From NCBI GenBank assembly GCA_024233865.1, contig JACKPA010000012.1, forward strand, positions 64,001 through 128,000: a stretch of 64,000 nt of DNA, written 5' to 3'. The translations under genes were made by a program, and so were the position numbers. The DNA is from Leptospiraceae bacterium (GTDB lineage: Bacteria; Spirochaetota; Leptospiria; Leptospirales; Leptospiraceae). Positions 12,882 through 64,000 of this stretch are shown here, piece by piece (position 1 is the first letter of the stretch; every line of letters begins with the position of its first letter). The notes beneath the pieces are model-generated. The model searched no databases and was not told the origin of the DNA. It saw nothing but the letters and a program-made list of their open reading frames with translations.

Positions 12882-14199
12882 ATTGCTTCATCTTATACTG
12901 TAATGATCCTCTTGAGATTCCCAAAGCTTTGGACATTCTCATTTGATTGCCTGCAAAAAGTTTACTGGCAAGAATAATTTTTTGTCTTTCCATATTCTCC
13001 ACACACTTTCTTAAGTTCAAATCCTCATTTGTAAGAGTTATAGGTTGTGGCTCGCAAGTAGAAGCAAGATAGTTTTCATCCAAATCAATTTCACTTCCTT
13101 TAGCTCTTACTATTGAATTTTCCAGCAGTCCCCTAAGCTCTTTTAAATTTTCGGAATAATCATGCTTAGCCAACAAATCCAAAGTCCTATTAGAAAGTTT
13201 CAGACCGGAACGACCATGCAAAAGTTTTAATTCATAAAACATCTTCCGTATTACTTCCAAGAGAACTATTTTATCCAATAAATTTAACTTTGGTAAAAAA
13301 ACAGAATTCTCATTCAAAATATCCCAAAATGGTTGATAGGTATCCACTCTACTTTCATTTCTATCAATAAAAAATAAACTACAAGCTTTTTTTTCTTTCT
13401 GTAAAAATTGATAAAACAAGTTTTGCTGTCCCACGTTAAAGGAATCCACACCGTCAAAAACAATTACTCCATGACGAATCATCTTAGTCCAATTTTCCAA
13501 AGATTTTTCCAACTTTCCAAGCTGTTCCGGTATTGAATTGATAAAAATAAAATCACCGCTATATTCAAATTTTCTGTAAATATATTTAGCCAAAGATTTT
13601 TTGCCGCTGCCATTTCCGCCACCTATCAATAAAACAGGTGGAAAAAAATCGCTATTGATTTTCTCAAAACCACTAGAAAAAGAAACCAATAATTCAATTA
13701 TTCCAAAATCGCTTTTGTCAGAAAACTCAATTGCCTTTTCTCCATCATCATTTTTGTATTTAAGAGAATATATCTGACCGACCCTATTGGCAAACATCCC
13801 TATGAATAAAGACATAATGTCTTTGCATACACCCGTAAACTCAAACAAAACAAACCCTACTACATTGCCTCTTTTAGCAATAATTCTTGAAACCAAAGCA
13901 AAATCCGAATAATTAAAATAAAGCTTAAACTCCTTTGCATAAAATATCAAAGGAAGAATTGAAGCTTCCACTTTCTCCAAATGCCCCCCCCCCCTCGATA
14001 AAAACCCATAATAAAAACCATCTTGCCCATAACCGGAAATGGCACATTCAATAAAATAATCTTTACCAACTGGTGCAAGAGCTATAGTCCCACAATTTGC
14101 TCCTACTGCATTCACAATTTGCTCAAAAACTAAAGACAATTCATTCTCTAAGCTTTCAGGAGTAAGGTTCTCATTGAACAATAAGTTATACAATATCAA
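12865..14199 (-). CDS. Degenerate sigma-54-activator-like (AAA+ central domain) regulator with C-terminal Fis-type HTH
   Basis: Walker-A-like GGGNGSGKKSLA. Central-domain remnants IVFDGVDSF..QQNLFYQFLQ, VFLPKLN.LDKIVLL and ENLKELRGLLENSI. C-terminal HTH MRMSKALGISRGSLQYKMKQF. No GAFTGA seen. The ORF contains a G11 tract. Confidence 0.55.
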   Translation of the reverse strand: MILYNLLFNENLTPESLENELSLVFEQIVNAVGANCGTIALAPVGKDYFIECAISGYGQDGFYYGFLSRGGGHLEKVEASILPLIFYAKEFKLYFNYSDFALVSRIIAKRGNVVGFVLFEFTGVCKDIMSLFIGMFANRVGQIYSLKYKNDDGEKAIEFSDKSDFGIIELLVSFSSGFEKINSDFFPPVLLIGGGNGSGKKSLAKYIYRKFEYSGDFIFINSIPEQLGKLEKSLENWTKMIRHGVIVFDGVDSFNVGQQNLFYQFLQKEKKACSLFFIDRNESRVDTYQPFWDILNENSVFLPKLNLLDKIVLLEVIRKMFYELKLLHGRSGLKLSNRTLDLLAKHDYSENLKELRGLLENSIVRAKGSEIDLDENYLASTCEPQPITLTNEDLNLRKCVENMERQKIILASKLFAGNQMRMSKALGISRGSLQYKMKQFDLEF

Positions 14200-14392
14200 C
14201 CACCAATAAAACTGCTACAACCTAGTTCAGTGTCGGACATCCGACAAAATATTCTTATAGACTAGAATATTCATCCCTTAGTAAGAATCACGCAAAAAAT
14301 ATAAAAATAAATTAAAAGTATTGATTTATTACAAGCTAAATATTTTAAACTCAAAATAGATTATTTTATAAAAAAATAACGAAATCTTTCCT

Positions 14393-15980: not shown

Positions 15981-16115
15981 ATATACTATGATTAGATTCA
16001 CTTGATTTTAAAGGATTTTCTGCATTTCATATCTACAAACCAATCCGCGTTGTGTATAGTATCGCTCATTAGTTTATTCCAAATCACCTTAATCAAAATC
16101 GAAGGAATATTCATT

Positions 16116-16192
16116 CCTGTTGATTAAATTTAATCAACAGGAAATCGATCTTAAAGCACGTGTAATATGATTAAATTTAATCATATTACACG
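16116..16192. promoter_or_regulatory. Two perfect palindromes (26 bp and 34 bp) sharing core TGATTAAATTTAATCA; candidate centromere (parS-like) or iteron/operator
   Basis: Palindrome 1 is CCTGTTGATTAAATTTAATCAACAGG at 16116-16141. Palindrome 2 is CGTGTAATATGATTAAATTTAATCATATTACACG at 16159-16192. Both lie in the 660-bp gap between parB and the Rep-like gene. Confidence 0.5.
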
Positions 16193-29566: not shown

Positions 29567-29810
29567 TGTAAAAGTGCTGTTTGGATGGTAACCACAGATA
29601 CTGGATATTTTCCGTTCCTGTTTTTCCATACATCAGGTATCCAACCGTCTCACTGGAGCATCCCCAGTGCAACTCCACTGACGTTTTCTGGACGTTCAAT
29701 GCTCCAAAATACGTCACCTTCATTCTGTTAATATCATCCGACTTTTCCAGTGGTCGTTTGTTGCATCCTACAACCAAAATTGCCATGAATAGTATAAATA
29801 GTTTCAATAA

Positions 29811-29840
29811 CCCCCCTCGGTCCCCCCGTGAACGGGGGGA
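29811..29840. repeat. R2 G/C-rich hairpin element (CCCCCC-TCGGT-CCCCCCGTGAACGGGGGG)
   Basis: 6-bp G:C stem with GTGAAC loop, preceded by a second C6 run, in an otherwise ~35% GC region. Confidence 0.55.
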
Positions 29841-29842
29841 AG

Positions 29843-30472
29843 TCAAAAGCTCTTCAAAACAGACAGTTGCAAACCGCCGTTTCCGTAGCCGATGTATTTT
29901 TCTACAATTGCGTTTCCTCTCAGTCCCACTCGGACTACAAACCCTGCAAACTTTAGTCCCTGCCATCCGATTTCTGTCATAAACATTGGATCAGCACCCT
30001 CCGCGTGGTGAGCGGAGTCGAACCATACACCTCTTCTTCTTTTGAAGTTGATGTAAGATACTCCCACTCCAAAATTGCCATAAAAGTCGAGCATGGAACT
30101 TATCTTGTATCTGTATTGCAGGTAGAGTATGTTGTTCACCATTTTGTAGTCTGCGTCGGTCATCGAGCCTGGTCGAGATGTAGAGCGTGTGTATTCCAAG
30201 ATGTATCCCAATCGCATGGAATCCGATATATTCAAGAAATCCGGTTCAAACTGGAATCCTCCTCCAGCAGCAGCACCGTTTACCTTTCCTGCCGGTGTGC
30301 CATTTCCAAAATAGTGAAACTGTAGTCCGATCAAGTTTTCATCTTCTTCCTTTTTCACTGGTTCCGTCTTTTTGGTATCCGGTTTTTTTGCTTTGCTTGG
30401 CGGTGTTTTTTTTCCACTTTGAGCAAGCATCACACTTGGTAATAATAATACGATAAGCAATACTTTATACAT
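29843..30472 (-). CDS. Outer-membrane beta-barrel-like protein with Lys/Pro-rich N-terminal linker
   Basis: Signal peptide. Alternating hydrophobic beta-strand pattern, C-terminal aromatic (..KSF). Confidence 0.4.
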   Translation of the reverse strand: MYKVLLIVLLLPSVMLAQSGKKTPPSKAKKPDTKKTEPVKKEEDENLIGLQFHYFGNGTPAGKVNGAAAGGGFQFEPDFLNISDSMRLGYILEYTRSTSRPGSMTDADYKMVNNILYLQYRYKISSMLDFYGNFGVGVSYINFKRRRGVWFDSAHHAEGADPMFMTEIGWQGLKFAGFVVRVGLRGNAIVEKYIGYGNGGLQLSVLKSF

Positions 30473-30563
30473 ACGTTTTAATATCTACCACCGATACACA
30501 CAGATAAACACCGATAAAAATATCTGTGTACATCCGTGTTTATCTGTGGTGGAAAACCATATC

Positions 30564-34237: not shown

Positions 34238-34450
34238 AAGTATAGCATTAAGTGCCTTTTTAGTGTTATATATATATATGGTAATTGTGTTAATTTTGTG
34301 AAGAGTTTCATGTGAATCACCTCGTGTGTTATCGTCCTAAAGACAAAGTGATTGGAAACAAAAATTTTTTGCAAGTCTTTTATGAATTATTTTTCCAAGC
34401 GGAAAGAAAAAAATTACGTTTTTCCCCCGAATAGCTAAAATTCACTTTAA

Positions 34451-34486
34451 GCTTCATTTACCCCCGTTCACGGGGGTAAGTGAAGC
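34451..34486. repeat. R2 G/C-rich hairpin element (inverted orientation) embedded in a 16-bp-arm palindrome GCTTCATTTACCCCCG-TTCA-CGGGGGTAAGTGAAGC
   Basis: Core CCCCCGTTCACGGGGG is the reverse complement of the 29822 and 63741 cores. One mismatch in the 16-bp arms. Confidence 0.55.
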
Positions 34487-34682
34487 CAAAACCTGAATTT
34501 AAACCGAATGGGGGGGAATAAATTCGTTAATTATGTCTTTTTATTCAGTAATTTTTTCATTCTTTCCAATTCTTTTTTTAATGAAAGGAAAGAAAAGAGT
34601 TTTTTCAAAAACCTTATTGCCAAAAAATAGGAATATCCGTATACTAAAAAACAAGCATAAATCCCAAAAATCACGGTAAACT

Positions 34683-39777: not shown

Positions 39778-40998
39778 TTAATTAAAAAAAAATTCCATTT
39801 CTTTTTTGAGCCAAAGGATACGAACGATAAGCATAGCCAAAAGCACAATGCCAAACCACAAAATTCCAAAATCATTGTAAGATTTTTTAGAATTTTTGTA
39901 CAAAATGATCATAGGGATGCTGAGAGTAAACATTCTCATTATGTTATCGTAAGTTAGCCAATAACCTTGTTCGGCAATCCCGGCAGTAAAAAGGATGAAT
40001 AAAATTGGAAGAAACCAAACAAAATCTTGAACCGTTTTAATATTTCTTAAATTCAAAAGCAGTAGCAGATAAAAAATAAAGATCGGATATTTTGCCAGTT
40101 CTCGAACAAAAGGTGATAGATTCATTGGAGTCGAAAACGAAATGCTTTTAAAAAAGCCAAAAAACGGATAATCGATCAAATCAAGAAATGTTAGTGGATA
40201 TGTTCCGGGATTGGCATCTAAAAAAAATCGAAGGTAGAAGACAAAGGCAAAATAAAAAATTATAGACCCCCCGACTAGTCCAAGCAAACTTTTAGTCTCA
40301 TTACTCCCCCCTGTTGGGGGGAGTATTTGGACTGAACTAGAACTAAAGCTATTTGGGGGGTAGCTTCTTTTCAGCCATAACAATAACAATAACATCCCCA
40401 TTATGCTGAGAGCTGATTCTTTGATCAAAACGAAAAAGCAGCCAAGCAGTAGCAAAACAGATATCTTTGCCGGTTTGTGGCAATCTTTTTGATTCAAAAA
40501 GTAGAATATAAAAATCGTCCAAGAGCATACCAAAGAATCGGATAGTAGTAATAGGTTTGAGTTGATTACAAAAGGCGAAAACAGATGGAAATTCGCCAAA
40601 TAGCGGATTTCTTTTTTGCAGAGTTTTTTGAGCATAACAAAGGACATAATGTGAGATAGGTGTAGTATTGCTAAAGTGATAACCGGATAGGCTTTTGTGC
40701 CAAATATTTTTGAAAAAATTGAGGTTAGCAAGGGAAGCCCGATTCGAGTAAATCGAACACTAAATGAGTCCAAAATCGGAAGTTGCGAAGAAACACCACT
40801 CAAATACTGATTGATCAAATAAAAAAATTGCCCATCATATCCACCACTTTTATATACCACAAAACCTTTATCAACAAAATCGGGATTCAGGTTCAAAAAT
40901 CCTTCCCAGATCCCAATCATCGAAGAAAGGTTGTAATCATAAGGTTTTATGCGATAATAAATTAAAATTACGTTTAAAATAATGTATAAAAATATCAT
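39778..40998 (-). CDS. Polytopic integral membrane protein (GT-C-like/unknown) carrying an in-frame G/C-rich hairpin insertion
   Basis: ≥9 predicted TM helices. Hairpin CTCCCCCCTGTTGGGGGGAG at 40304-40323 encodes ..LPPTGGS.. in-frame. Confidence 0.5.
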   Translation of the reverse strand: MIFLYIILNVILIYYRIKPYDYNLSSMIGIWEGFLNLNPDFVDKGFVVYKSGGYDGQFFYLINQYLSGVSSQLPILDSFSVRFTRIGLPLLTSIFSKIFGTKAYPVITLAILHLSHIMSFVMLKKLCKKEIRYLANFHLFSPFVINSNLLLLSDSLVCSWTIFIFYFLNQKDCHKPAKISVLLLLGCFFVLIKESALSIMGMLLLLLWLKRSYPPNSFSSSSVQILPPTGGSNETKSLLGLVGGSIIFYFAFVFYLRFFLDANPGTYPLTFLDLIDYPFFGFFKSISFSTPMNLSPFVRELAKYPIFIFYLLLLLNLRNIKTVQDFVWFLPILFILFTAGIAEQGYWLTYDNIMRMFTLSIPMIILYKNSKKSYNDFGILWFGIVLLAMLIVRILWLKKEMEFFFN

Positions 40999-51853: not shown

Positions 51854-52687
51854 ATGAGAACTGGGCTTATAATTGTTTTTATTTGCTGTATTTTTACTCA
51901 AGTTCTTTTCTCCGAAGAAAGAATTAAAGTAATTGATCCAAAGAATTATCCGGAGTACTTAAAAGAAAGAGATTCTATTGGAAATAAGTGGCAAATTGCA
52001 GTTATTTCTCCATTTCCCGATTCTCCATTATCATATTCTTTAAATGTGAATTATCGAGCATTTTCAAAAATCAGCTTTGGTGTTTCGGCAATGAGGGATA
52101 TATACAAAAAGTCTACTGATGGGATTAACTCTGGTTCTTATCCAGGCTATGTTCAATTTGAGAATGGTTTTGCCCTTAATATCCCATTATCAGCAACTAC
52201 GATAACTGACGAAACAAGACCACAAGGTATCATTTTTGGACGCTACTATTTTAACGATTTTGATAAAATAGGTGAGTCTATATTGGTTAGTACTTATTTT
52301 AATTTAGGTTTGGGTCGTAATTTTGGAGGCTGGACTATAAAAGAACAGACGACTTCCGTATACAAAACAGGAACAAATGGGGGATTTCGATTAAGTCCGC
52401 TAACTGTAACCTATGATGTTTCTCCGTTAAATTTTATAGCGATGGCAATGGGAGTTCAATTATTTTTTACGAAACCAAAAGGTTTGTTTTTGACATTTGA
52501 ATTAGGGATTTCCCTTTATAATTCAAAGAGAACAATTTATGCATATAGTGATCCTGCACGGTTTTATGCTGAACCCATTTCGGTCGCAGAAGTTTTATTA
52601 GCTCAACTAATTGCAAAGCAGGAAGACCCTTATTTTTCACATTCTCTTTTTTTTATTCCTTGGATAGGTTATTCATTTAATTTTTGA
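51854..52687 (+). CDS. Secreted hypothetical, beta-rich
   Basis: Signal peptide. Confidence 0.35.
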   Translation: MRTGLIIVFICCIFTQVLFSEERIKVIDPKNYPEYLKERDSIGNKWQIAVISPFPDSPLSYSLNVNYRAFSKISFGVSAMRDIYKKSTDGINSGSYPGYVQFENGFALNIPLSATTITDETRPQGIIFGRYYFNDFDKIGESILVSTYFNLGLGRNFGGWTIKEQTTSVYKTGTNGGFRLSPLTVTYDVSPLNFIAMAMGVQLFFTKPKGLFLTFELGISLYNSKRTIYAYSDPARFYAEPISVAEVLLAQLIAKQEDPYFSHSLFFIPWIGYSFNF

Positions 52688-52690
52688 ATT

Positions 52691-53419
52691 ATGAAAAATT
52701 GTATTTGGTTTATTCTATTATTGTTTATACATTGCTCTGCTAAAACTATAAATATAGGGCATAACCAAAAAAAGTTTGGTTTACGTTACAGCTATAGAGT
52801 GGGAGTGTTACCATACAAAGACAGCCGAACAAATGAGATGCCAAAGTTGGTAGAATATCAAAATGTCCTTCAAGATTTTAAAAAAGTATTAAACGATCAA
52901 CCAATTAAAGTCAATTACTCTTGCAATACCAATAGCAATCGCTTTTTTTCAGTAGAGTATTTGGCTCAAGATTTAAAACAAGCTGAAGTGTTTCAGGATA
53001 TTATTGAACTTTCCGGTTTTCCTGAGTTAGATACTTCGGAACTTATTCAACGTTATCAACTAGACTTATTGATTCAACCTGAGCTAAAAGATATTTATTT
53101 GGAAAAAAGTTTTTCAATAGCAAATTTATTTGGCTATATGCTTCCACCAGCAGTTTTAATGGGATTAATCGGAATTCCTTTCCCATTACTTGTCGAATAT
53201 AATTTTGTTATTTATCTAGATATTAATTTTTATAAAAAAAATAATAGTAAAATGATTAAAAAAAATTATATACATAAAGGGATTAGATTCGCAGATATTG
53301 GAACTTCTTATTATGAATTTGACACTGAAAATAAAAAACATAATTTGGGATTGCTTATCAAGAATCTATATGAAAATTTAGAATATGAGATTAGTGAAGA
53401 AATGTTTACTGAATTATAA
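52691..53419 (+). CDS. Hypothetical lipoprotein-like
   Basis: Signal/lipobox-like LFIHCS. Confidence 0.35.
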   Translation: MKNCIWFILLLFIHCSAKTINIGHNQKKFGLRYSYRVGVLPYKDSRTNEMPKLVEYQNVLQDFKKVLNDQPIKVNYSCNTNSNRFFSVEYLAQDLKQAEVFQDIIELSGFPELDTSELIQRYQLDLLIQPELKDIYLEKSFSIANLFGYMLPPAVLMGLIGIPFPLLVEYNFVIYLDINFYKKNNSKMIKKNYIHKGIRFADIGTSYYEFDTENKKHNLGLLIKNLYENLEYEISEEMFTEL

Positions 53420-53786
53420 ATTTATACTTCTATTTTTCATCGTGAATTGTGCCACCTTATTTACAAAAGAAAGATTTGCAATTTCATTAGAATCGAATAT
53501 AGAAGGTGTTTTTTGTACCATTCGTTCTGACTTTGAAGTAGTTCCTGTGAGGGTTCAAATCCCTAGCGTTATTGAATTAAAATTTGATAAACACTATGAA
53601 TTACTATGTGAAAAAAAAGGATACCAAAGAAAACTTATTCCAATCGAAAACAATATAAAACCAATAACAGCTTGTAACGCATATCCATGTATGGGAATTC
53701 CATTTTATATTGATTGGTACGAATACTCATTTTATGAACCTAAATCAAATAGAATTCAAATTCAATTGGAAAAAATAAACCCCTGA
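53385..53786 (+). CDS. Small secreted hypothetical
   Basis: Signal peptide with FIVNC. Confidence 0.3.
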   Translation: MRLVKKCLLNYKFILLFFIVNCATLFTKERFAISLESNIEGVFCTIRSDFEVVPVRVQIPSVIELKFDKHYELLCEKKGYQRKLIPIENNIKPITACNAYPCMGIPFYIDWYEYSFYEPKSNRIQIQLEKINP

Positions 53787-53802
53787 CAATCATTACTAAT
53801 TA

Positions 53803-55206
53803 CTAAAAAGCAAAGTACAAAAAGTTTTGGCTTTCCGTTACTCCAAATATCAAAACAATAAACATACTCGCAATGTTTGCATAGATTAATTTGTTTCCTT
53901 GACCTGCCATATACTCGATGTTCTTTTTGGAAAAGATATAACTTGCAGTGTAACAAATCACAAGAAGAATTCCGTATTGGTAATTTGCGTAAGAGGTTAG
54001 GCTAGAAATTCCTTTGTCTATAAAAAGCATGGTTTTGAATATATCTATGGATTGGGACAGGTCTTGTACTCTAAACATAACAAACCCAAAACCCAAAGCA
54101 AACATCGTAAAAAACCTAGACCATAAATCATAAACCCAGCCCCCCCTTTCATTTAGCAGCTGCCTTAGATTTGTTTTGGCATATTCTCGATGGATAGAAA
54201 TCATAATGGCTTGCCATAAACCCCAGGCTACAAAATGATAAGCAGCTCCATGCCATACGCCTCCGAATAGCCAAGTTATAAAAATGTTTCTGTAAGTCGC
54301 AAAGGTTGAGCTACGAGAACCACCCAGGGGAATAAATATATAGTCTCGAATCCAGGTTGTAAAAGAAATATGCCACTTTGTCCAGTGATCAGAAATATTA
54401 GCTGTCGCCATGGGAAAGTTAAAATTCGGATCAAATTTGAACCCAAAAAGCCGTGCTACTCCGATGGCAATATCAGTATAACCGGCAAAATCGAAATAGA
54501 CCTGCCATCCGAAAGCGATTACACCCGTCCAAATTTCTATAGGGTTGAGCATGGCATAATTTTTAAAGGTAAAGTCTACAACTATACCCAGATTGTCTGC
54601 AAAAACGATTTTCCGCATAAAACCCATCAAAATTCGATTGATGGCGATTTGAATGTCTTCATTTAGAACGGGCAAACGATTGTCCAAGTCTCTAAAAAAA
54701 GTTGAAGCTCTGACAATAGGACCAGCTACCAATTGAGGAAAAAAAGCAACATACAAGGCAAAGTCTATAAAGTTTTTCCTTGGTTCTATTTGTCTCCTGT
54801 ATACGTCTATGGTATAGCTCATGGATTGAAACGTATAAAACGAGATCCCAACGGGTAAAATGATATTGTATACCGGAAAATTGGTAATACTAAGGTCGTT
54901 TGTTATACCCAAAAGAAAGTTTGTATATTTAAAATAACAGAGAAGCCCTAAATTTCCTATGAGAGATACCACAAGAAAAAATTTACGTTTTCGATTACTA
55001 TCATCTTCTTTGTGCATTTGCAAGGCAGCAAAGTAATCAATGAGAGTTGAAATCAAAATCAAGGTAATAAAGTAGGCATTCCATACCATATAAAAGTAAT
55101 AGCTTGCTAATAGGAGAAATATCTTTTGTTTCCTATTTTTGAGTAGGTGAGCGATTACGATTGTAATCGCAAAAAATATTAAAAAATGAATCGAATTAAA
55201 TAGCAT
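53803..55206 (-). CDS. MBOAT-family membrane O-acyltransferase (second paralog)
   Basis: WHISFTTWIRDYIFIPLGGS and WHGAAYHF motifs. Confidence 0.8.
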   Translation of the reverse strand: MLFNSIHFLIFFAITIVIAHLLKNRKQKIFLLLASYYFYMVWNAYFITLILISTLIDYFAALQMHKEDDSNRKRKFFLVVSLIGNLGLLCYFKYTNFLLGITNDLSITNFPVYNIILPVGISFYTFQSMSYTIDVYRRQIEPRKNFIDFALYVAFFPQLVAGPIVRASTFFRDLDNRLPVLNEDIQIAINRILMGFMRKIVFADNLGIVVDFTFKNYAMLNPIEIWTGVIAFGWQVYFDFAGYTDIAIGVARLFGFKFDPNFNFPMATANISDHWTKWHISFTTWIRDYIFIPLGGSRSSTFATYRNIFITWLFGGVWHGAAYHFVAWGLWQAIMISIHREYAKTNLRQLLNERGGWVYDLWSRFFTMFALGFGFVMFRVQDLSQSIDIFKTMLFIDKGISSLTSYANYQYGILLVICYTASYIFSKKNIEYMAGQGNKLIYANIASMFIVLIFGVTESQNFLYFAF

Positions 55207-55261
55207 AAATCAAAGACACTTTGCTTTTTGAGTATACATTTTATCTACAATTATTTCAGGT

Positions 55262-56317
55262 CTATTCTTTTTGAATTGAACCGGGGATTTTATCAATAAA
55301 ATCATTTCCTAATACCAAAGAAGGAGTCTGGAAACCGGACATATAATTGCCCTTTAAAACTTCCAAAACGGCAAGTATCGAAGAATCGACCGTAAATTGA
55401 TAACCTTCTTCCGTTTCATAGCGTATTTCTAGCTTGTCTCCGGCTTCGTTTTGGACTTCACCCCACAAATAACATTTGTCAGTCTGTCTTGCCAGCTCGG
55501 AAGGTCCTGTTACAAATTGATCTACCAAAAATTGAGAAAAATGGAGTAGGGGAGGGACCTTAAATAATCCTACCGTTGATCCTAAAAATTGGAGGGCATT
55601 GGTAAAGAGTCCTGGAAAAAAGGAATAGACTTCAATGTTGGGAATTTTTGTAGAATGATAAGCTGTAAAAACATCTCCCCATGGAATGGCGTGAAACTTT
55701 AGCTGTTTCCCTTTGTATTCTATCATTTTTGATTTGGAAAATTGTGGAATAGAGATAATTTCACCATTTTTTCTCATCTTTGAACCATCCGGAGCTTGGG
55801 CAAGCATACTTTTTAGAGTTCCTCGGCTAACACCAGCCAAGCCCATAAATGCCAAAGATAAAAACTTGGCATCTAACATCTTTTTGCTAAGTTTTGCTGC
55901 AATACAATCCGTAGGCACAATGTCAAAACCAACTCCTGGCAATAACATTACGTCTGCTGATTTGGCTTCGTTGTGTAAATCATAGAGTAGGGAGTAAACC
56001 GGAATTTCGCCGGTTATATCCAAATAATGGGTATGCGATTTGAGACACGCTCTTGCCATAACCTCGGAAGTTTCGGTAAAAGGTCCCGCACAGTGAAGAA
56101 CACAATTCATACCTTTAAGCCGGGAGGCTATCTTGTTCACGTCCTTGAGTGGGAAAACGTCAAATGGTAATTTTAATTCCGATGCAAGTTGAACTATTTT
56201 TTCCCTATTTCTACCGGCTATTGTAGGTTGTAAACCCAATTCACAGGCTTTTCGAGCAATAAGTTCACCCGTATAACCATTTGCTCCATAAATCATCCAA
56301 TGTTTTTCTTTTTGCAT
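55262..56317 (-). CDS. Saccharopine-dehydrogenase-like NAD(P)-binding protein
   Basis: N-terminal Rossmann motif IYGANGYTGELIARKA. Confidence 0.65.
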   Translation of the reverse strand: MQKEKHWMIYGANGYTGELIARKACELGLQPTIAGRNREKIVQLASELKLPFDVFPLKDVNKIASRLKGMNCVLHCAGPFTETSEVMARACLKSHTHYLDITGEIPVYSLLYDLHNEAKSADVMLLPGVGFDIVPTDCIAAKLSKKMLDAKFLSLAFMGLAGVSRGTLKSMLAQAPDGSKMRKNGEIISIPQFSKSKMIEYKGKQLKFHAIPWGDVFTAYHSTKIPNIEVYSFFPGLFTNALQFLGSTVGLFKVPPLLHFSQFLVDQFVTGPSELARQTDKCYLWGEVQNEAGDKLEIRYETEEGYQFTVDSSILAVLEVLKGNYMSGFQTPSLVLGNDFIDKIPGSIQKE

Positions 56318-56590
56318 AATTTCTTGCTAAATTTTTATGGGATTATATTTTATGATAACAGGATAAAATTTGATCTAATATCTGCAACAAAAATATACAA
56401 TGTTGAAAAACTCTTTCCACTCCTTTCATAACCAATTACATTGCCTATTATGCTGATTGCCAATCCTATTTATGACGTAGTTTTTAGATACTTGATGATT
56501 GCTAAGTGTGTTCGGGGAGATTTTTTTCTTTTCTTATCTGATAAATTTACTTGCATATTTACTATCTTTTTGCATAGCTAATTATACTAT

Positions 56591-57007
56591 TTGATTTTTA
56601 ATAAGGAATACATGAAAAGAATATCCAATCTATTAATTGCCTTCGTAGCAATCGAGCATATACTGTTTTTGATTATGGAAATGTTTTTGTGGCAAACACC
56701 TTTTGTAATTCAAAGGTTCAATATGACAGAACAAATTGCAAAAGACTCGGCTTTGCTTGCCATGAATCAAGGTCTTTACAACGGATTCTTGGCAGCGGGG
56801 CTTATATGGAGCTTGCTGATTCGATCTTATGTCGAGCAAGCATTTAAAATAAAGCTGTTTTTTCTCTCCTGTGTAGTTATCGCCGGAATTTTTGGTGCGT
56901 TAACGGTCAAAATTTCCATTTTAGTTATTCAAGCTCTGCCCGCACTTATAGGTTTGGTTGTAGTATACTTAAGCAAACCGCAAGAGAATTATGACGTGGT
57001 GATTTAG
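56591..57007 (+). CDS. Small 4-TM membrane protein (DUF1304-like)
   Basis: IEHILFLIMEMFLW pattern. Probable start at 56612. Confidence 0.4.
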   Translation: MIFNKEYMKRISNLLIAFVAIEHILFLIMEMFLWQTPFVIQRFNMTEQIAKDSALLAMNQGLYNGFLAAGLIWSLLIRSYVEQAFKIKLFFLSCVVIAGIFGALTVKISILVIQALPALIGLVVVYLSKPQENYDVVI

Positions 57008-60000
57008 TGCAAACAATGGGTAATTCTCAAAAAGGTATCGACTACTGCTCCGCAACGAATTTGAAAGACTTAGCGGATAATTTTATTCAAAAATCGCTTT
57101 CCTCCAAAAAAAAGGTGGAAGAAATCCTAAAACCCCACTTTGTTATTGTCCAAAATCGAAACATTCGCAAATGGCTTTATCTGGAAATTGGAAAAAAGCA
57201 GGGAATTGCAACTAATTTTGACTTTCATTATTTTGAACCTGGTTTATTCCAAATTTTATCCGACTTCACCCCTCAAAACCAATATGAGTATTTGGATACT
57301 ACACACTTCAAGCTATTTGTTATTTCCGCATTGCAAAACATTTCCAAACAAAAAGGTACAAATTTCAAGCGTTTTTTTTCCTATCTGCATTTGTCGGACA
57401 CTACCAAACGACCGGATTTTGCTCCCAGAATTTATCAGCTCTCATCCATGTTGTCCCGGTACTACAGAGAATACGAACTCCATTACCATTTAACAACCGA
57501 AACTTCCTTAACAAAAGTCAATCAGTTGAATTCTAATAGCAAGCTTTATGAAGAAGAGATGTTGATCTACAACGCCATTTTTCAAAAGGATGGACTCAGA
57601 GACAAATTTGGTAAATTTTATGGGAAAAAATTACTTACTCTACCTCAACTCAAAAATGAAGTTTTTTCCAATCCCTCTTTGGAATCTAACTCCAGATACA
57701 ATACAATTACGATTTTTGCTCTTCCTCAGGTGTCGAGTTTCCACTATGACTTGATTCAAAAACTCTCCAATTTCTATCAAATCAACGTATACCAAATCAA
57801 CCCTATTTATGCCTTTGAGATTCCCAAAGATGCCACAGCACAGAACATTCAAGAAAACAAGAGTTTGTTATATTTATGGGGAAAACCTTATTCGGACGGA
57901 GTTGAGATTTTAAGGAACTATCCAAATATTATTCCTCAGATAAAAACACAATCCGAAGTAAAACTACCCAAGCAGGAAAAACTCCTATCGTATTTGCAAT
58001 TTGCCATTCAAACCAAACAATATGATTACGAGATAAGTGTGCCACAAGACGATAGCTTACAAATTTTGTCTTGTCCTGGAATTTACCGGGAAGTAGAAAC
58101 TGTATACCAAAGTATTCTCACCAATATGAACCAGGACAAAGGATTAAAACTGACGGATATCGCCATACTTACAACGGATATGCAAAAATACAGCTCTACC
58201 TTACTGAGTGTTTTTCAAGGCAAAGTAGAATCAAACATAACTTTTAACATAAACGACTCCAATGCAAAAAAGGATAGTGTTTATGGAAACGCTGTTTTGT
58301 CCATTCTCAAACTTTCTCAAGGAGAATTTACCAGAAAAGAAGTTTTTGAATTAATCAAGAATCCGTGTTTTATTGCGTCGGCTGGAATTGATAGGGAGGA
58401 TACGGATGTATGGTTATCCTTGGTAAACCAGTTAAACGTTTTCCATAGCTTTGATTCTAAAGATCGCTCTAATAAAGGTTATCCGAGTGGTGACATATAT
58501 AGCTGGAACCAGGCTTTTCAAAGGCTACGTTTGGGAAAAATGATAGATACGGATTTTATCAGACAAGACAACTATTTTTCTGACTTTGAAGGAATTGTTT
58601 CCTACCAGAACTTTAACAGTTTGGGAAACGGGCAATTGGGAAAGTTTTTTGTGATTGTCGAAGATTTGTTCAAAAGGATAGAAAGGTTAAAAAAAGAATC
58701 AGGCAATTGGGACTCCAAAAATTGGAAACTCGAACTTGAATCACTTCTGGGCTCTTTTTTAAAAGTTCCGAATGACTACCAAGATGAGGCTATCATCTGT
58801 CAGACTCTTTATGATAGTTTGAACTATTTGGATATTTTTGATACAAAGGGGAATATTGACATCTCTTTTGTAATAGAATTTTTACAAGACTGCTTGGAAT
58901 CCATACCAACAAGCTCCGGAAACTATCTCACGGGAGGTATCACCATTGCTTCTTTGCTTCCTTTAAGACCTATTCCTTTTAAAATCATTTATATTCTGGG
59001 ATTGGGAGAAGGTCTTTTTCCTGGATCGGAAGACAATTCTCTTTTAAACTTGAAACCAGCTTTTCGTGCGTTAGGGGATATATCCAATCCCGAAAGAAAT
59101 ACTTATCTCTTCTTGGAAACCTTGCTATGTGCGGAAGAAAAACTTTATCTTCTGTACAATGCTTGGGATATTCAAAAAGATGAAGAAAAATACCCCTGTT
59201 CTGTTTTAAATCAACTCATAAGTTTTTTGGAAGAAAACATGTTAAAATGTGATTTTCAAAAAGTAAAAATTCCTTTAAAACCAAACGATCCCCTTTATTT
59301 TGACGTGTCAGCAACAGGGGAAATGAACCATACTGATGTTTTTCATGTTAGCTCCTTCCAAGAGAAACTCCTTTATCTTATAGAGAAAGCACCTAAAAAT
59401 TTTGATTGGAAAGATGTAGAAAATAAATACAGCCTAATCATTACACAAAATAAATGGAAACAAAACTTTGTTCCTCCTGTACCACATAACAATCTTAGTG
59501 AAAAAACGAGTGTTGGTCTCTATGAACTAAGAAAGTTTTTAGAAAATCCCATTGAAAGTAAGATGAATAGATACCTTGGAATTCGCAGCGGAGAAGAAGA
59601 AGACGTGTCTTTGGCAGAATCCGAGTCCTTTTTCTCTGATAATTTAACAAAATACCAAATTGCAATGGATTGTATCAACTATTACATACAGAGTGTAGAC
59701 TCCAAGAATAGAAACAATCCAAGTACAATGGAATTGTACATCGAATCTTTTTACAAACATCTAACTTTACAGAGCAAAACTCCGGAATCAAGCTTTGCGG
59801 AATTAGAAAAAAGCAATCTCAAAAAAGAACTATTACAAAGGATTTTCGAAAAGGAACTATCAGAACTTTTAAAAAAACTTGAAAGTGATTCCACCTTTTA
59901 TGCCAATATTAGCTTAGGAAATCCCCAAGGAAAAAGGAAGAAGTTTCTAATGTTCCAAGCAATCCAACTGCCACAATGGAATTTGGAAGTTCATGGAAGT

Positions 60001-60522
60001 GTTTCCAATTGTTTTGTAAACAAAGACCACATAGATATGCTGGTTGTTACAAACAGAAAAAGTTGGGATAACGGTATGTTAAAATTTATATTTGAGCCTT
60101 TTTTGTTTTATCTTTTTTGTTTATCCGGTTTTTCAAAAGAACTAACGTCCTTATTTGGCAAAGAAAACATCCATTTTTATATCTCTCATAAAGACGGCAT
60201 CCAAGAATTGTACTACCAATTCAGTAAAAAAGAAGCAAATGACTATCTATCCGAGCTACTAAATGACTTTACTCAACAGGATTCTTTTGATACAATCCCT
60301 TTTTCTGTCTTTGCACAAGAAAAAGGCTTAAACCCAAATTCGGAATTAGACGAGTCTACATATCGTAATCAATTGATAGAGAAAATCGAAACCGAGTCGG
60401 AAAATTCTTATAGCTTTACAGGTTTTCCGGAGTATATGGATTTGCTTCCGATTAATGTTCCAGTCAATGTCAAATCAATAATTCAAAAAAGGTTTGGAAA
60501 GATGTTTTCTTACGGTTCATGA
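57007..60522 (+). CDS. recC: Exodeoxyribonuclease V gamma subunit RecC-like
   Basis: The N-terminal stretch PHFVIVQNRNIRKWLYLEIGKKQGIATNFDFHYFEPGLF resembles E. coli RecC (ILVQS.GMAQWLQM..GIAANIDFPLPASF). A later motif, GGITIASLLPLRPIPFKIIYILGLGEGLFP, also matches RecC (MRSIPFKVVCLLGMNDGVYP). 1171 aa. Confidence 0.75.
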   Translation: MQTMGNSQKGIDYCSATNLKDLADNFIQKSLSSKKKVEEILKPHFVIVQNRNIRKWLYLEIGKKQGIATNFDFHYFEPGLFQILSDFTPQNQYEYLDTTHFKLFVISALQNISKQKGTNFKRFFSYLHLSDTTKRPDFAPRIYQLSSMLSRYYREYELHYHLTTETSLTKVNQLNSNSKLYEEEMLIYNAIFQKDGLRDKFGKFYGKKLLTLPQLKNEVFSNPSLESNSRYNTITIFALPQVSSFHYDLIQKLSNFYQINVYQINPIYAFEIPKDATAQNIQENKSLLYLWGKPYSDGVEILRNYPNIIPQIKTQSEVKLPKQEKLLSYLQFAIQTKQYDYEISVPQDDSLQILSCPGIYREVETVYQSILTNMNQDKGLKLTDIAILTTDMQKYSSTLLSVFQGKVESNITFNINDSNAKKDSVYGNAVLSILKLSQGEFTRKEVFELIKNPCFIASAGIDREDTDVWLSLVNQLNVFHSFDSKDRSNKGYPSGDIYSWNQAFQRLRLGKMIDTDFIRQDNYFSDFEGIVSYQNFNSLGNGQLGKFFVIVEDLFKRIERLKKESGNWDSKNWKLELESLLGSFLKVPNDYQDEAIICQTLYDSLNYLDIFDTKGNIDISFVIEFLQDCLESIPTSSGNYLTGGITIASLLPLRPIPFKIIYILGLGEGLFPGSEDNSLLNLKPAFRALGDISNPERNTYLFLETLLCAEEKLYLLYNAWDIQKDEEKYPCSVLNQLISFLEENMLKCDFQKVKIPLKPNDPLYFDVSATGEMNHTDVFHVSSFQEKLLYLIEKAPKNFDWKDVENKYSLIITQNKWKQNFVPPVPHNNLSEKTSVGLYELRKFLENPIESKMNRYLGIRSGEEEDVSLAESESFFSDNLTKYQIAMDCINYYIQSVDSKNRNNPSTMELYIESFYKHLTLQSKTPESSFAELEKSNLKKELLQRIFEKELSELLKKLESDSTFYANISLGNPQGKRKKFLMFQAIQLPQWNLEVHGSVSNCFVNKDHIDMLVVTNRKSWDNGMLKFIFEPFLFYLFCLSGFSKELTSLFGKENIHFYISHKDGIQELYYQFSKKEANDYLSELLNDFTQQDSFDTIPFSVFAQEKGLNPNSELDESTYRNQLIEKIETESENSYSFTGFPEYMDLLPINVPVNVKSIIQKRFGKMFSYGS

Positions 60523-60542
60523 TTGAACTCACCTTATATTAT

Positions 60543-61817
60543 TCAAAATTTAAACGAATAACTTATATTCAAACATCGTTCTCCAAGATTTGCTTTTCCA
60601 TACGATCTATAATCAAGTCCTATTGTCCAATGCTTTGTAGGATAATCGTTCGTTGATATCCTACCGTTGTTTTCATTTAAAGTTGTTAAACCGTCATAAA
60701 CATTAAAAAGATAAATAAGGGAAAAAAGTCCAATCGACAAATTCCTTTCTCCAGATTCTACTTTGGAAACATTGTTTTCAGCGTTCGTTCTATAGTTTAG
60801 TAGGTATAAGTTTCCCGGATCGTTTGTCTGAGGAGAATTGAAATTATAGAGCCCGAAAGCTTGATTGGCATTTTCATACTTTGTATAGGTTCTATTGTAA
60901 GGGGAAGTAGGGTAGTATCTATTGTAAACTTGGTAGTATCCGATTGCCAAAAACGAAGCGGTTGTAATTGCACTCGCTTTAAGTTTTTCACCTTTTTCCC
61001 ATTGAACATAGCCAGGCACAAGTGCTTTGTACCACTGAATGGAAGGTGGTTTTGGGTAGGCAAATGTCCGAAATTCCGTTAAATCTATACTGCCTTTCCC
61101 TTTGATATAACTGAGTGGAATTTGCTCGTATTTTAATTTATCAAAAATGTATTTGGATATTTCGCTATTTGTAACTTTGTTGTCCGTATCATAATCAGCT
61201 TCACCATTCAAGCCTTCAACAAGGTGTTTGGCAAACTTGCCCATGCTGCTTGAGTGGTCTTCACAGCTACATTTGCTAGGAGGTGTAGCGTAGAGCAAAG
61301 TTCTTGTTTTGTTTGCTTGTTCGGAGTTTAAACTGGGCCATTTGGATATTTCTTGATCTACACCTTTCCGAAAAGTATCAATTAGCAGTGTATAACCTTT
61401 AATTTTGGATTTGTCCAGATGGTTTATGATTTGTTTTAGGAGAATGTGTGTATCGGTCAAAGCCAAAGAGCCATTTTTCCCGTGGCCGGAAAAAAATATT
61501 AGAATCGAATCGTTTTCACTTGCCGTTTCTAAAATGCTTTCGAGCAAAGCTAAAACATTATCTTTGCGTGGATAATAGGCAGAATCGGTATTCATAATAT
61601 CTGTCATTTTGTAGGTTATTGTTGTTGGTTTCCCATATTTACTAAGAGTTGCAGTAAGATTATTGGCTTCATTTTGAGGGTAGTGCAAGGGGATATTTTT
61701 ATATTCGCCATAATGATACCTACCGATACCAATAATAATCGCATGGTTGATTCCGCTTTCTGCTAGTAAGGAAAATGAAAATAGCAATAAGGCAGAATAA
61801 AAGACTATTTTTCTCAT
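60543..61817 (-). CDS. Caspase-like (peptidase C14 fold) lipoprotein, probably catalytically inactive, with C-terminal beta-rich domain
   Basis: Signal peptide. HG motif FFSGHG is retained. The position of the catalytic Cys (D-A-C-R-G) reads LIDTFRKG, i.e. Cys replaced by Phe, in my manual alignment. Confidence 0.5.
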   Translation of the reverse strand: MRKIVFYSALLLFSFSLLAESGINHAIIIGIGRYHYGEYKNIPLHYPQNEANNLTATLSKYGKPTTITYKMTDIMNTDSAYYPRKDNVLALLESILETASENDSILIFFSGHGKNGSLALTDTHILLKQIINHLDKSKIKGYTLLIDTFRKGVDQEISKWPSLNSEQANKTRTLLYATPPSKCSCEDHSSSMGKFAKHLVEGLNGEADYDTDNKVTNSEISKYIFDKLKYEQIPLSYIKGKGSIDLTEFRTFAYPKPPSIQWYKALVPGYVQWEKGEKLKASAITTASFLAIGYYQVYNRYYPTSPYNRTYTKYENANQAFGLYNFNSPQTNDPGNLYLLNYRTNAENNVSKVESGERNLSIGLFSLIYLFNVYDGLTTLNENNGRISTNDYPTKHWTIGLDYRSYGKANLGERCLNISYSFKF

Positions 61818-62010
61818 TTGTATTTCGCTTTTTAGTAATGATAATTTTTCTTTTGTATTTAGCTATGATTTTTTTATTTAGGTGTAAAAAATATACCATG
61901 GGTAAAAAGACTTACAATTCGTTTATCGAGCTTAGCTGAAATAAACCTTATTTTATTGCTCATTTCGACAAGCTCAGGTGAGAGGTATCCTTAATTCATC
62001 AACATGCTTA

Positions 62011-62286
62011 TTATGTGGCACTAAAATTAAGTAACCAGCAAACAGTTCCCAAATCTTGATTTACTTTTACCTGTTTAAAATAATTCCAATCCTTTAGAGG
62101 TTCAAAAACACCTTCATAAACAATTAGTTTTTCTAAATTGATAACTCCCGAAATGCCATTTTCAAACTTTAAATAAGTAAGGATTTTCTTCTTAGTTTTA
62201 CATATATAATATCTACTAACATGTTTATACCAACCTTCTTCAATTTCTTGAGTTAGATTTATGGTTAGTGTTTTTTGTCTGCTCAT
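62011..62286 (-). CDS. Small hypothetical protein immediately downstream of the MTase
   Basis: 91 aa. Abuts the MTase stop with no gap. Confidence 0.3.
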   Translation of the reverse strand: MSRQKTLTINLTQEIEEGWYKHVSRYYICKTKKKILTYLKFENGISGVINLEKLIVYEGVFEPLKDWNYFKQVKVNQDLGTVCWLLNFSAT

Positions 62287-64000
62287 TTACCCTACTTTAA
62301 AAGTTTTGTTTTGTATGCCTCGATAATAATTATGGATTGTCGTTTTTTCTACGATGCTCATTTTCGGAAAACTGTCCAAGACTGTTAGCATCTCTTCTTC
62401 TGTAAGTCCATACAGATGGAACACCATTGCGTCGATCTGTGCTTCCCACTTGGAGGCCTCACCCCCGTCCCCTCTCCAATCTGGAGAGGGGAGTTGCTTT
62501 GCGGCAAGTATCTTGTCTACGAGGGTGATGAATGGCTTTTGCAAGTCTGAATTGTCGATTGGTGCTTTTGGGATTGGGAGTTGTTCAACATATTGAGTAA
62601 AAAATCTATATACATGGCTACCTAGTGAATTTGCTATTTTTTGGTAATAAAAATTTAACAAATTACTATTTAATATACCTAAAATATACTTTGAATTACT
62701 ATCTATGATATAAGATGTGTTATTAAAATAATAATTTTTTTCAACCATTGAGTACGAAACATTTTTAGATATATCCGGATATACAATTTTTGACTTTTCA
62801 AAAATAAAATAATAGTCACAATCCCTTAACTCCCACCAATAACTGCCTTGATCTAATCTTTCGTAAAGACCTTTTCCTTTTCCAATTCCAGAATCTCCAA
62901 GTTTTTTTAAATGATTGTAAATTTCAGGATAGGATTTTTTAAAAAACTGTTCCGGATTTTCATTTCTTCTATTTATGTTTGTCCACCCTGATGGTATTAA
63001 AATTAACCATAAATTATTCCATTCATAAGTATATCTGTGAATATCTCTCCCTCTTAAAATGGGTTTAATAATTTCATTGTTCTTTTTATCTTTTTTGCAA
63101 AGCAATTCTTTTGTTTCTGTATTAATGATAAATGCTTCATTAAAACCCGTTATAAGTCCCCTATAAATTTTTATACCTAAATCTTTTAATTTTACTCCTC
63201 CTTGTTCTATCTTCTTCTTTATATTTTGTTCCTTAAAATCTCCTAGAGAAAACGATGTATCCTCTAAATCATTTTGATTAATCAGATGACCTTCGATGTT
63301 AACATATTCTGGTATATTGAACTTATCGTAATCGGGTGAATCAATTGTTACAACACGTAATCCATTCGTAGGGACAGGTCTCAGACCTGTCCCTACATTC
63401 TCACGTTGAAATATCGTTACATTCGTATCCACCGTTGCAGATTCAAATACTTTTTGCCCTCCAAAATCTATAATTTGTAATAGCTTAGTTTTTGTCTTAA
63501 AAAATTTTCGTAAATTCTCTCCATAACGAGCTCGCATCCATTTATTACTTGTGATGAATGTTAAAACACCTTTATCTTTTAATAAATTAAATCCACTTTC
63601 ATAAAAATAAGTGTATAAATCGGAAATAGAATTAAAAACAGTATAATATTTTTGTAAAATAGGCTTAATTTCCTTAATAGATTCTTGTCTTACATACGGC
63701 GGATTTCCAATCACAACATCAAAGCCACCTTCCCCCCCAGCCCCCCGTGAACGGGGGGAGTTACTTGCGTTAGTTACTCCCCAGCTCGCGGGGGGCGGGG
63801 GGGAAATCCCAAACATGTGTTCAGGGTCGAACCAATCCGCAGATTTGAGTCTGTCGTAAGGATTCCATTCCGCAATCTTGCTAGCTGAATCTTTAGAAAA
63901 CTGATTTTTTAGAAGAAATTCAGAAATTTCTTTGCGTTTCTCTTTATCTTTCTCTCGCAGTTCTTTTTTCTCTTTATAAGTCCTTGCATCAAAGTGTTGT
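62287..64000 (-). CDS. Type IIG/PglX/MmeI-like N6-adenine DNA methyltransferase (N-terminus beyond window) carrying four in-frame palindromic insertions
   Basis: The reading frame stays open upstream of the listed Met to the window edge (..AEWNPYDRLKSADWFDPEHMFG..). Motif IV is FDVVIGNPPY. The C-terminus ends IDAMVFHLYGLTEEEMLTVLD, typical of Eco57I/MmeI/PglX-family enzymes. Palindromes at 62469-62491, 63368-63396 and 63741-63758, plus a G-run segment at 63781-63803, are all read in-frame. Confidence 0.65.
   Translation of the reverse strand, partial: QHFDARTYKEKKELREKDKEKRKEISEFLLKNQFSKDSASKIAEWNPYDRLKSADWFDPEHMFGISPPPPASWGVTNASNSPRSRGAGGEGGFDVVIGNPPYVRQESIKEIKPILQKYYTVFNSISDLYTYFYESGFNLLKDKGVLTFITSNKWMRARYGENLRKFFKTKTKLLQIIDFGGQKVFESATVDTNVTIFQRENVGTGLRPVPTNGLRVVTIDSPDYDKFNIPEYVNIEGHLINQNDLEDTSFSLGDFKEQNIKKKIEQGGVKLKDLGIKIYRGLITGFNEAFIINTETKELLCKKDKKNNEIIKPILRGRDIHRYTYEWNNLWLILIPSGWTNINRRNENPEQFFKKSYPEIYNHLKKLGDSGIGKGKGLYERLDQGSYWWELRDCDYYFIFEKSKIVYPDISKNVSYSMVEKNYYFNNTSYIIDSNSKYILGILNSNLLNFYYQKIANSLGSHVYRFFTQYVEQLPIPKAPIDNSDLQKPFITLVDKILAAKQLPSPDWRGDGGEASKWEAQIDAMVFHLYGLTEEEMLTVLDSFPKMSIVEKTTIHNYYRGIQNKTFKVG

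Follow-up and report, generated by a model that had tools for sequence, protein, structure and literature searches.

Among the repeats that coding sequence can harbour in frame are the G+C clusters of yeast mitochondrial DNA as well as coding palindromic repeats from Methanocaldococcus and Wolbachia, and we know of no link between these repeats and the DUF559 nuclease domain. Rickettsia palindromic elements (RPEs) were reportedly described by Ogata et al. 2000 and in later work, and the pairs of repetitive extragenic palindromic (REP) sequences called REPINs or REPtrons, together with the REP-associated tyrosine transposase (RAYT), are said to have been treated by Nunvar et al. 2010. RPEs are in-frame palindromic repeats of Rickettsia, 100–150 bp long and confined to Rickettsiales (PMC1779305). 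REPs of the GTAG/CGTC type lie in frame in known genes of several phyla, as singles or dimers encoding 20–30 aa (PMC3733652); they can occur twice per gene and favour genes for DNA transactions and DNA repair (Di Nocera, De Gregorio and Rocco 2013, PMC3733652), and different REPs were found at one recB site in two Xanthomonas species (PMC3733652). REPINs are inverted head-plus-hairpin pairs mobilized by RAYT transposases (Bertels and Rainey 2011, PMC3116915), while I-Bth0305I is a Vsr-like (EDxHD) homing endonuclease of a type known from introns and inteins (PMC2677866, PMC3239194), and DUF559 and the Vsr-like homing endonucleases belong to the same nuclease superfamily (PMC3424549). Here, we analyzed 64,000 nt of an uncultured Leptospiraceae bacterium (GenBank assembly GCA_024233865.1, contig JACKPA010000012.1, positions 64,001 to 128,000; hereafter the window), in which several G+C-rich palindromes lie inside a DNA methyltransferase (methylase) gene.

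The gene runs off the end of the window and was completed from L001, a syntenic contig of a second assembly. Its features are listed below in window coordinates, unless L001 is named:

62287..64000, minus strand: 3' 571 codons of a Type IIG-like gamma-class N6-adenine DNA methyltransferase gene, identified by its open reading frame (ORF), translation, Pfam and PADLOC matches and fold match
62457..62491, minus strand: element 1, family F1, a hairpin with a conserved 10-nt tail, identified by a 28-base signature and by the predicted local distance difference test (pLDDT)
63368..63396, minus strand: element 2, family F2, a 29-nt perfect palindrome GTAGGGACAGGTCT-S-AGACCTGTCCCTAC
63730..63806, minus strand: elements 3 and 4 as one composite of family F3, 77 nt, identified by inverted repeat, folding, indel and pLDDT
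63741..63758: element 3, the hairpin CCCCCCGTGAACGGGGGG, part of one composite arm
63790..63803: element 4, GGGGGGCGGGGGGG, the poly-C/G head of the other composite arm, encoding PPPP
L001 8676-8725: second F1 copy of the methylase gene, beyond the window edge, SPLSFGEGLGVRF
L001 10104-10143: two-tier palindrome in the methylase gene, beyond the window edge, CCTCACCCCCTGCCCCTCTGGGGAGGGTTTGGGTGGGG, with the peptide PCPSGEGLGGV

In our view, this methylase gene has probably been colonized by at least five short, non-autonomous G+C-rich hairpin repeats from at least three families, which persist as tolerated passengers in surface loops. At least five element units of at least three families were counted within the 3.8-kb gene and all of them keep the frame, as expected for all five or six elements of the gene under selection for an intact product. 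The full gene (L001 8627-12437, ORF intact) was reached through P0001, a protein of a Leptospiraceae metagenome-assembled genome (MAG) that is 99% identical to the window methylase and pointed to L001. This contig belongs to the same strain-level lineage, is 99.83% identical to the window over 11.7 kb and keeps every window element, and the "partial" label on its gene is caused by a scaffold gap, not by a frameshift. An earlier note, based on the letters of the window, had proposed four palindromes within one ORF open to the window edge. All four are present, each with no match in 100 shuffles; the ORF lies on the minus strand, with its stop codon at 62287-62289 and no further stop up to the window edge, and is intact in two independent assemblies rather than being a pseudogene. 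The elements are also the G+C-rich islands they were said to be, since they have 59–69% G+C in a gene whose in-window part has 33.9%, or 31.0% without them.

On the window strand, element 1 reads CCTCACCCCC-GT-CCCCTCTCC-AATCT-GGAGAGGGG, and on the gene strand it is composed of the hairpin CCCCTCTCC-AGATT-GGAGAGGGG, AC and the tail GGGGGTGAGG; the hairpin previously reported at 62469-62491 stands, while the conserved tail extends the unit to 62457. Its peptide (PSPDWRGDGGE) is the loop that joins the TaqI_C domain to the C-terminal helices, a linker of bimodal length among homologues (17 or 24 residues), with the window in the longer class. Of the three frames of F1, one contains TGA; the copies in the methylase gene are read in the other two (RGDGGE, GEGLGVR). 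As no frame with a stop codon is used, the elements would be transcribed and translated as Gly/Pro/Arg/Ser-rich disordered loops. Element 2 was confirmed at 63368-63396 as a perfect palindrome of 29 nt that folds with −14.5 kcal/mol (z = −8.6). It opens with GTAG as in GTAG-REPs, but here the GTAG pairs with a terminal CTAC. Its peptide VGTGLRPVPT lies in the loop behind the conserved ATVDTN strand, which has 20 aa in the window vs. a median of 14 among homologues (~6 residues longer).

Elements 3 and 4, previously taken as separate, turned out to belong together as the arms of a single inverted-repeat unit of 77 nt (63730-63806), and element 4 had been misplaced by a few nucleotides (63787-63800 instead of 63790-63803). 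On the gene strand, the first arm consists of a C7 head, G and the hairpin CCCCCC GCGAGC (T)GGGG; it is followed by a 20-nt spacer (AGTAACTAACGCAAGTAACT) and by the second arm, i.e., the hairpin CCCCCC GTTCAC GGGGGG, CT and a G7 tail. The arms (28 nt, 82% complementary) fold as a single long hairpin (−31.7 kcal/mol, z = −5.3), and the terminal inverted repeats around a short core follow the layout of a miniature inverted-repeat transposable element (MITE). The composite encodes SPPPPASWGVTNASNSPRSRGAGG directly ahead of motif IV. The core of element 3 is repeated exactly at 29822-29839, as had been noticed; the other reported copy (34460-34477) is intergenic too, but has two mismatches. In a separate comparison of the window with L001, 13 of the 20 differences were packed into 221 nt upstream of and inside the composite (window 63768-63988; 5.9%), and the other seven were spread over 11.5 kb (window 52287-63767; 0.06%). 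As this switch in divergence falls inside the 77-nt composite, the hairpin looks like the place of a recombination breakpoint.

Insertion was assessed by aligning 121 methylase homologues, with length counts at the composite site made over 100 sequences. The composite occupies the position that the earlier note had given for element 3, between ..MFG and GFDVVIGNPPY, a stretch that is exactly 3 residues long in 84 of the 100 homologues, as opposed to 27 in the window. The net insert relative to homologues is a clean 24 codons (72 nt, 63733-63804), as the proposed indel check had anticipated, and the empty site is visible at the DNA level in a homologous locus (L123). We also modeled P0001, the full-length-domain protein, with AlphaFold2 (pLDDT 85.4, pTM 0.81). 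Internal segments with pLDDT < 50 were restricted to residues 42-45, 313-330, 444-451, and 745-752, which are exactly the peptides of the fifth element, the composite, element 2, and element 1, in this order, so that the suggested structural check came out in favour of loops. The model resembles CamA (TM 0.74–0.78), M.BseCI, PglX, and MmeI and has a complete CamA/TaqI-like methyltransferase fold. Since the disordered segments coincide with the element peptides, the methyltransferase fold is otherwise complete and gains disordered loops from the elements.

The likeness to RPEs suggested in the earlier note is supported, as both are dispersed palindromes that occur between genes as well as in frame within intact genes, where they add peptides that homologues lack, and in both cases several families are found together in one genome. 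RPEs, which comprise the sequence families RPE-1 to RPE-8, differ in being A+T-rich like their host, whereas the window elements are 29–77 nt long and G+C-rich in a genome of 35% G+C, have no sequence similarity to RPEs, reside in a member of the Leptospiraceae, and include two families that span many phyla. Judging from their sequences, the window elements behave like RPEs but are not members of that group. With GTAG/CGTC REPs they share the form of 20–40-bp hairpin repeats in frame, two per gene, the DNA-transaction targets and, in element 2, the initial GTAG; unlike them, F1 and F3 have C-rich heads or G-rich tails instead of GTAG/CGTC, and restriction-modification methylases are not in the target list of PMC3733652. 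The suggestion that such elements had not been described did not hold in general, because in-frame palindromic repeats are documented (PMC1779305, PMC3733652). The kind is already established, and the novelty lies in the host group, the target-gene class, and the repeat families; the link with DUF559 described below is possibly new.

The dispersal of F1, a family with a C-rich head or G-rich tail and the CCCCTCTCC hairpin, was examined with the signature CCCCTCTCC-N3-5-GGAGAGGGG-NN-GGGGGTGAGG (28 fixed bases), which was present in at least 120 metagenome stretches of 31–72% G+C. The call for a count of copies elsewhere was thus answered for F1, and the element 3 type recurs in the window itself, once in frame. 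At low-G+C loci, F1 was often located in frame inside MetH, LeuRS, QueG, an RsmE-like methylase, an M16 peptidase, and others, and copies were also found between genes. A repeat specific to the methylase gene was considered and rejected, as none of 15 long F1-bearing ORFs was homologous to the methylase. The F3 form (a poly-C head, 2–5 nt, and a C6 hairpin with a GYGARC loop) was searched by a genome-contig scan with CCCCCCGYGARCGGGGG; the matches listed came mostly from high-G+C genomes and from few low-G+C ones, and among them head-plus-hairpin units were found in unrelated low-G+C genomes.

A DUF559 (Vsr-like PD-(D/E)XK) domain was found within the host protein, beside the F1 copy, in three of ten F1-bearing ORFs. 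Run over 862 kb of F1 loci, the DUF559 profile recovered, among the matches listed, six loci, all of them ≤ 90 nt from an F1 copy. In MetH (L136:3424-7683, minus strand) and LeuRS (L207:1-3204, plus strand), a DUF559 ORF located between inverted F1 units is read through in frame; in L173, DUF559 is likewise bracketed by inverted F1 copies, and another tRNA ligase (L127:3-1517, plus strand) has an in-frame DUF559 on a contig that begins inside the domain and shows only the downstream repeat. The cultured cyanobacterium Fischerella sp. PCC 9605 (L244, KI912149.1 335023-338595) has a free-standing DUF559 gene with F1 clusters on both sides, which stands between a methylase-like gene (DUF1156) and a defence-island gene (DUF499). 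The F3 loci (828 kb) contained, among the matches listed, only two DUF559 genes, 72 nt and ~250 nt from an F3 pattern; in L108, DUF559 lies between two F3 units. The MITE-like expectation that short units match the ends of larger ones was borne out for F3 (L108) and for F1 (L136, L207, L173, L244). Close DUF559 relatives are mainly free-standing ORFs of 115–130 aa, with one fused to chorismate synthase, which led us to reject the idea that they are mostly embedded domains. We found no literature on DUF559 bracketed by hairpin repeats or read through in host genes (Elhai et al. 2008 falls outside the comparison), and the tight association of F1 and F3 with DUF559 genes, as seen in these sequences, is possibly new. 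As a side observation, a DUF559 domain in L057 (100-1000, minus strand), directly downstream of two element 3-type repeats, appears to lie within an ORF that resembles a Hint/intein by eye.

Some insertion sites are occupied repeatedly among the homologous methylases. The composite site is also filled in distant homologues, by a 50-nt palindrome that breaks the frame in L002 and by a C6 hairpin in frame in L122. The element 2 loop has inserts in ~10 homologues; in P0002, P0095, P0104, P0111, P0102, and others these are GTAG-type REPs or DUF559, the DUF559 domain being found in P0102, and in L002 and L123 this loop contains typical REPs with a free GTAG. At the position of the fifth element of the window lineage, L002 further has a DUF559 in frame with hairpin-plus-tail units on either side, and in L123 a RAYT (PF01797) gene (699-1235) is located between the helicase gene and a methylase gene carrying GTAG REPs. 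Side observations on these homologues concern P0047 from Ignavibacteria, which has PF01797 among its Pfam domains and an N-terminal stretch that is RAYT-like by eye, and three split methylase genes: L002 7305-11575 is split by the 50-nt palindrome, L122 1413-4575 by a palindrome containing TAA, and L123 1458-5316 by an extra A in a poly-A run, possibly an assembly error.

The host gene encodes an Eco57I methylase domain (Pfam PF07669, 2.7e-35) and a TaqI_C target-recognition domain (PF12950, 3.1e-20), contains both motif I (DPACGSGAF) and motif IV (NPPY), and keeps all catalytic motifs; we consider it most likely, on the basis of its sequence, that the methylase stays functional. Its best defence-system match was PADLOC REase_MTase_IIG (E = 1.2e-117). 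Of the Type IIG/PglX-like label used before, the Type IIG part is retained, while the PglX models scored far lower and no bacteriophage exclusion (BREX) cluster (brxA-brxB-brxC-pglX-pglZ-brxL) surrounds the gene, its neighbours being HKD-SNF2, an NTase/HEPN pair, and a caspase-like gene. In the search with domain and defence models, the N-terminal 425 aa matched Type IIG only weakly and showed no nuclease domain, for which reason we speak of a Type IIG-like methylase and not of a proven Type IIG enzyme. The candidate nuclease is encoded by the separate HKD-SNF2 gene upstream of it. In L001, the HKD-SNF2 nuclease/helicase gene (3.3 kb), the methylase, and the NTase/HEPN pair form an operon, and the locus is a two-gene defence locus that pairs an HKD-SNF2 nuclease/helicase with a Type IIG-like methyltransferase. 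The methylase TAA abuts the ATG of a 91-aa ORF without family match (window 62011-62289), an arrangement that suggests translational coupling.

Perfect G+C-rich hairpins were defined by a stem ≥ 7 and ≥ 70% G+C, and a looser threshold of 60% G+C was used to admit element 2. The window contained six such hairpins vs. 0.26 expected. At the 60% threshold, four of the nine hairpins in 74.7 kb were located in the methylase gene, which makes up 5.1% of the sequence (binomial P = 7e-4), and in L001 the methylase gene contained all five perfect hairpins, the 3.3-kb nuclease/helicase gene beside it being free of them.

With regard to the mechanism, non-autonomous hairpin repeats would spread through the genome, presumably mobilized in trans by a DUF559 nuclease in the case of F1 and F3 and by a RAYT in the case of the GTAG type. 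F1 and F3 probably represent terminal repeats of small DUF559-encoding units, the window copies being nuclease-less derivatives, and the nuclease acting on them would presumably be encoded elsewhere in the genome. Copies in coding sequence may survive only if they are in frame, free of stops, and placed in surface loops, after which they would be translated as flexible loops. The data show insertion relative to homologues, the potential to form hairpins, the spread of F1 and F3, placement in disordered loops, and physical proximity to DUF559; from these we infer that the elements are mobile and by what mechanism, that their presence is neutral, and that the methylase is active. A wider reading, which we put forward tentatively and regard as somewhat doubtful, is that of an undescribed class of mobile unit in which a ~110-residue DUF559 ORF lies between C-rich-head-plus-hairpin repeats. 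Such units might insert in frame in conserved genes without an intron or intein, so that the nuclease becomes a domain of the host protein, and could decay into or spawn the abundant nuclease-less repeats of many phyla, including the five elements of the methylase gene. If this tentative picture were right, the shared loops might reflect homing, and the composite might be a recombination joint inside which divergence drops ~100-fold.

Several observations weigh against colonization by inserted repeats. No close element-free orthologue was present among 5.8 billion proteins (the best match was the same species at 99%, the next had 52%), and as the nearest other homologue is only 52% identical, the clean indel of the composite is shown against distant homologues only; the empty sites in the methylase and in a glycosyltransferase (GT)-like gene described below are known from relatives that are ≤ 65% identical. 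Elements 1 and 2 occupy loops of variable length anyway, and neither direct repeats nor target-site duplications were definable at the elements. Element 2 has no further copies in the 75 kb of host sequence (window and L001) and its GTAG is base-paired, not a free tag, while the DUF559 profile and the RAYT (PF01797) query gave no match in the same 75 kb. Lastly, the enrichment of hairpins in the methylase gene is not fully explained by random insertion plus tolerance. This enrichment, together with the absence of hairpins from the co-transferred helicase gene, would be accommodated by site-specific homing, in which the elements or their DUF559 parents recognize conserved methylase sequence and insert at defined sites beside catalytic motifs, in the manner of homing endonucleases borne by introns and inteins; the sharing of sites would then stem from targeting and not from tolerance alone. 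The same explanation draws on the codon-level site before GFDVVIGNPPY, filled in three distant lineages (window, L002, L122), on the loop after ATVDTN, filled in ~10 homologues and once by a whole DUF559 domain, on the L002 DUF559 unit at the fifth-element site, on the fact that all sites border the most conserved motifs, and on the Vsr-like nucleases being a known homing-endonuclease family (PMC2677866, PMC3239194). We nevertheless regard homing as unlikely, because a common target would not be expected for the unrelated families found in the same loop (GTAG REPs, C6 hairpins, ACCACCCC-type palindromes, DUF559), the occupied sites are the length-variable loops of the family, and F1 is present in many unrelated genes and between genes with no conserved flanking target sequence seen. 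As unrelated families use the same sites and these sites are variable loops, selection for tolerated positions would be the main cause, with homing as a minority possibility.

The homologues of L002 and L122 are frame-broken exactly at such elements, a fact that could be read in two further ways. One is a functional switch, i.e., the tracts (C7, C6, G6, G7) and hairpins are kept to control the methylase by slippage phase variation or by transcription pausing or attenuation, as is known for phase-variable restriction-modification genes, which would also suit tracts located within the ORF of a restriction-modification methylase and the sharp change of strain divergence inside the composite. We find this very improbable: the locus does not look phase-variable, since no tract exceeds 7 nt and the lengths are identical in the two independent assemblies, and members of these families are also found in intergenic DNA and in housekeeping genes, places in which a switch would be meaningless. 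The other is decay, in which selection on the locus has ceased, the elements mark the beginning of its erosion, and the frame is open only by a passing accident. Related methylase genes are indeed split or frameshifted in L002, L122, and L123, and the codon differences between the two strains (8 synonymous, 6 non-synonymous) are too few to show selection, so that purifying selection is not evident; against this, five or six insertions are in frame, the 3.8-kb ORF is intact in both assemblies, the catalytic motifs are complete, the structure model is confident, and two of the six amino-acid changes fall within the 24-residue composite insert, suggesting more constraint on the remainder. Decay is, on balance, hardly to be expected here. 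That there was no insertion at all, the palindromic stretches being an ancestral linker of this methylase lineage that is repeat-like by chance, has a negligible probability, even though the loops with elements 1 and 2 differ in length among homologues. This view is contradicted for elements 1, 3, and 4 by the 3 aa at the composite site of most homologues, the match of element 1 to a 28-base signature found in so many unrelated contigs, and the exact repetition of the element 3 core in the window. We therefore retain colonization by hairpin repeats as the probable explanation.

Three further units of the F3 type were located elsewhere in the window:

29805..29841, plus strand: solo F3 unit, intergenic, [C6 head]-TCGGT-[CCCCCC GTGAAC GGGGGG]
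34446..34520, divergent intergenic region: F3-like unit, hairpin ACCCCCGTTCACGGGGGT with a G7 run 33 nt downstream
40268..40362, minus strand: F3-like unit, C6 ... ACTCCCCCC-TGTT-GGGGGGAGT ... G6, in frame in gene 39781-40998 (minus strand)

The first one is located directly 3' of the stop of an outer-membrane-protein-like ORF (29843-30472, minus strand). The gene with the third codes for a 406-aa glycopolymer-formation/GT-like membrane protein, in which the 17-residue peptide PTGGSNETKSLLGLVGG derived from the unit is missing in 17 of 17 aligned homologues, one of them 65% identical. A role of the intergenic element 3 copies as terminators seems unlikely, as the hairpin at 29822 is without a following T-run, and a tRNA or tmRNA origin of the G+C islands was discarded because the window has neither. 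Other sequence features of the window were noted in passing. A run of 11 C at 13978-13988 (G11 on the coding strand) in a 449-aa ORF (12868-14214, minus strand), encoding ..SRGGGH.., is a candidate slippage tract or small insertion. Two overlapping perfect A+T-rich palindromes at 16114-16192, with a common 16-nt core (TGATTAAATTTAATCA) repeated 47 nt apart, may be operator sites. Interleaved inverted repeats (CACAGATAAACACCGAT / ATCCGTGTTTATCTGTG) and a second pair are found at 30489-30548, just upstream of the outer-membrane-protein-like gene.

Regarding the systems that involve nucleases or transposases, the F1/F3 units resemble REPINs and REPtrons in that inverted repeat pairs also flank a small nuclease/transposase gene and nuclease-less copies far outnumber full units, whereas the partner gene is DUF559 and not a Y1 transposase and many copies are inside ORFs. 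Like Vsr-like homing endonucleases, DUF559 inserts into conserved genes; in contrast to them, it is not in a self-splicing intron and, in MetH and LeuRS, not in an intein; hairpin repeats bracket it, and the host protein includes it by read-through. The yeast mitochondrial G+C clusters offer the parallel of G+C-rich palindromic mobile clusters in an A+T-rich genome, although they, as well as the Methanocaldococcus and Wolbachia repeats, differ in hosts and sequences. If the DUF559 association is true, it would provide a function for a very common domain of unknown function, as well as a route by which a nuclease gene could invade coding sequence without a splicing element. Repeats of this kind cause Gly/Pro/Arg-rich "insertions" and split-gene calls in metagenome annotation, and recognizing them avoids misreading. 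With three repeat families in one gene, the locus is a compact natural experiment on the positions at which a methyltransferase tolerates insertions, and it represents a clear case, beyond obligate intracellular bacteria, of selfish hairpin DNA creating new surface loops in an intact gene.

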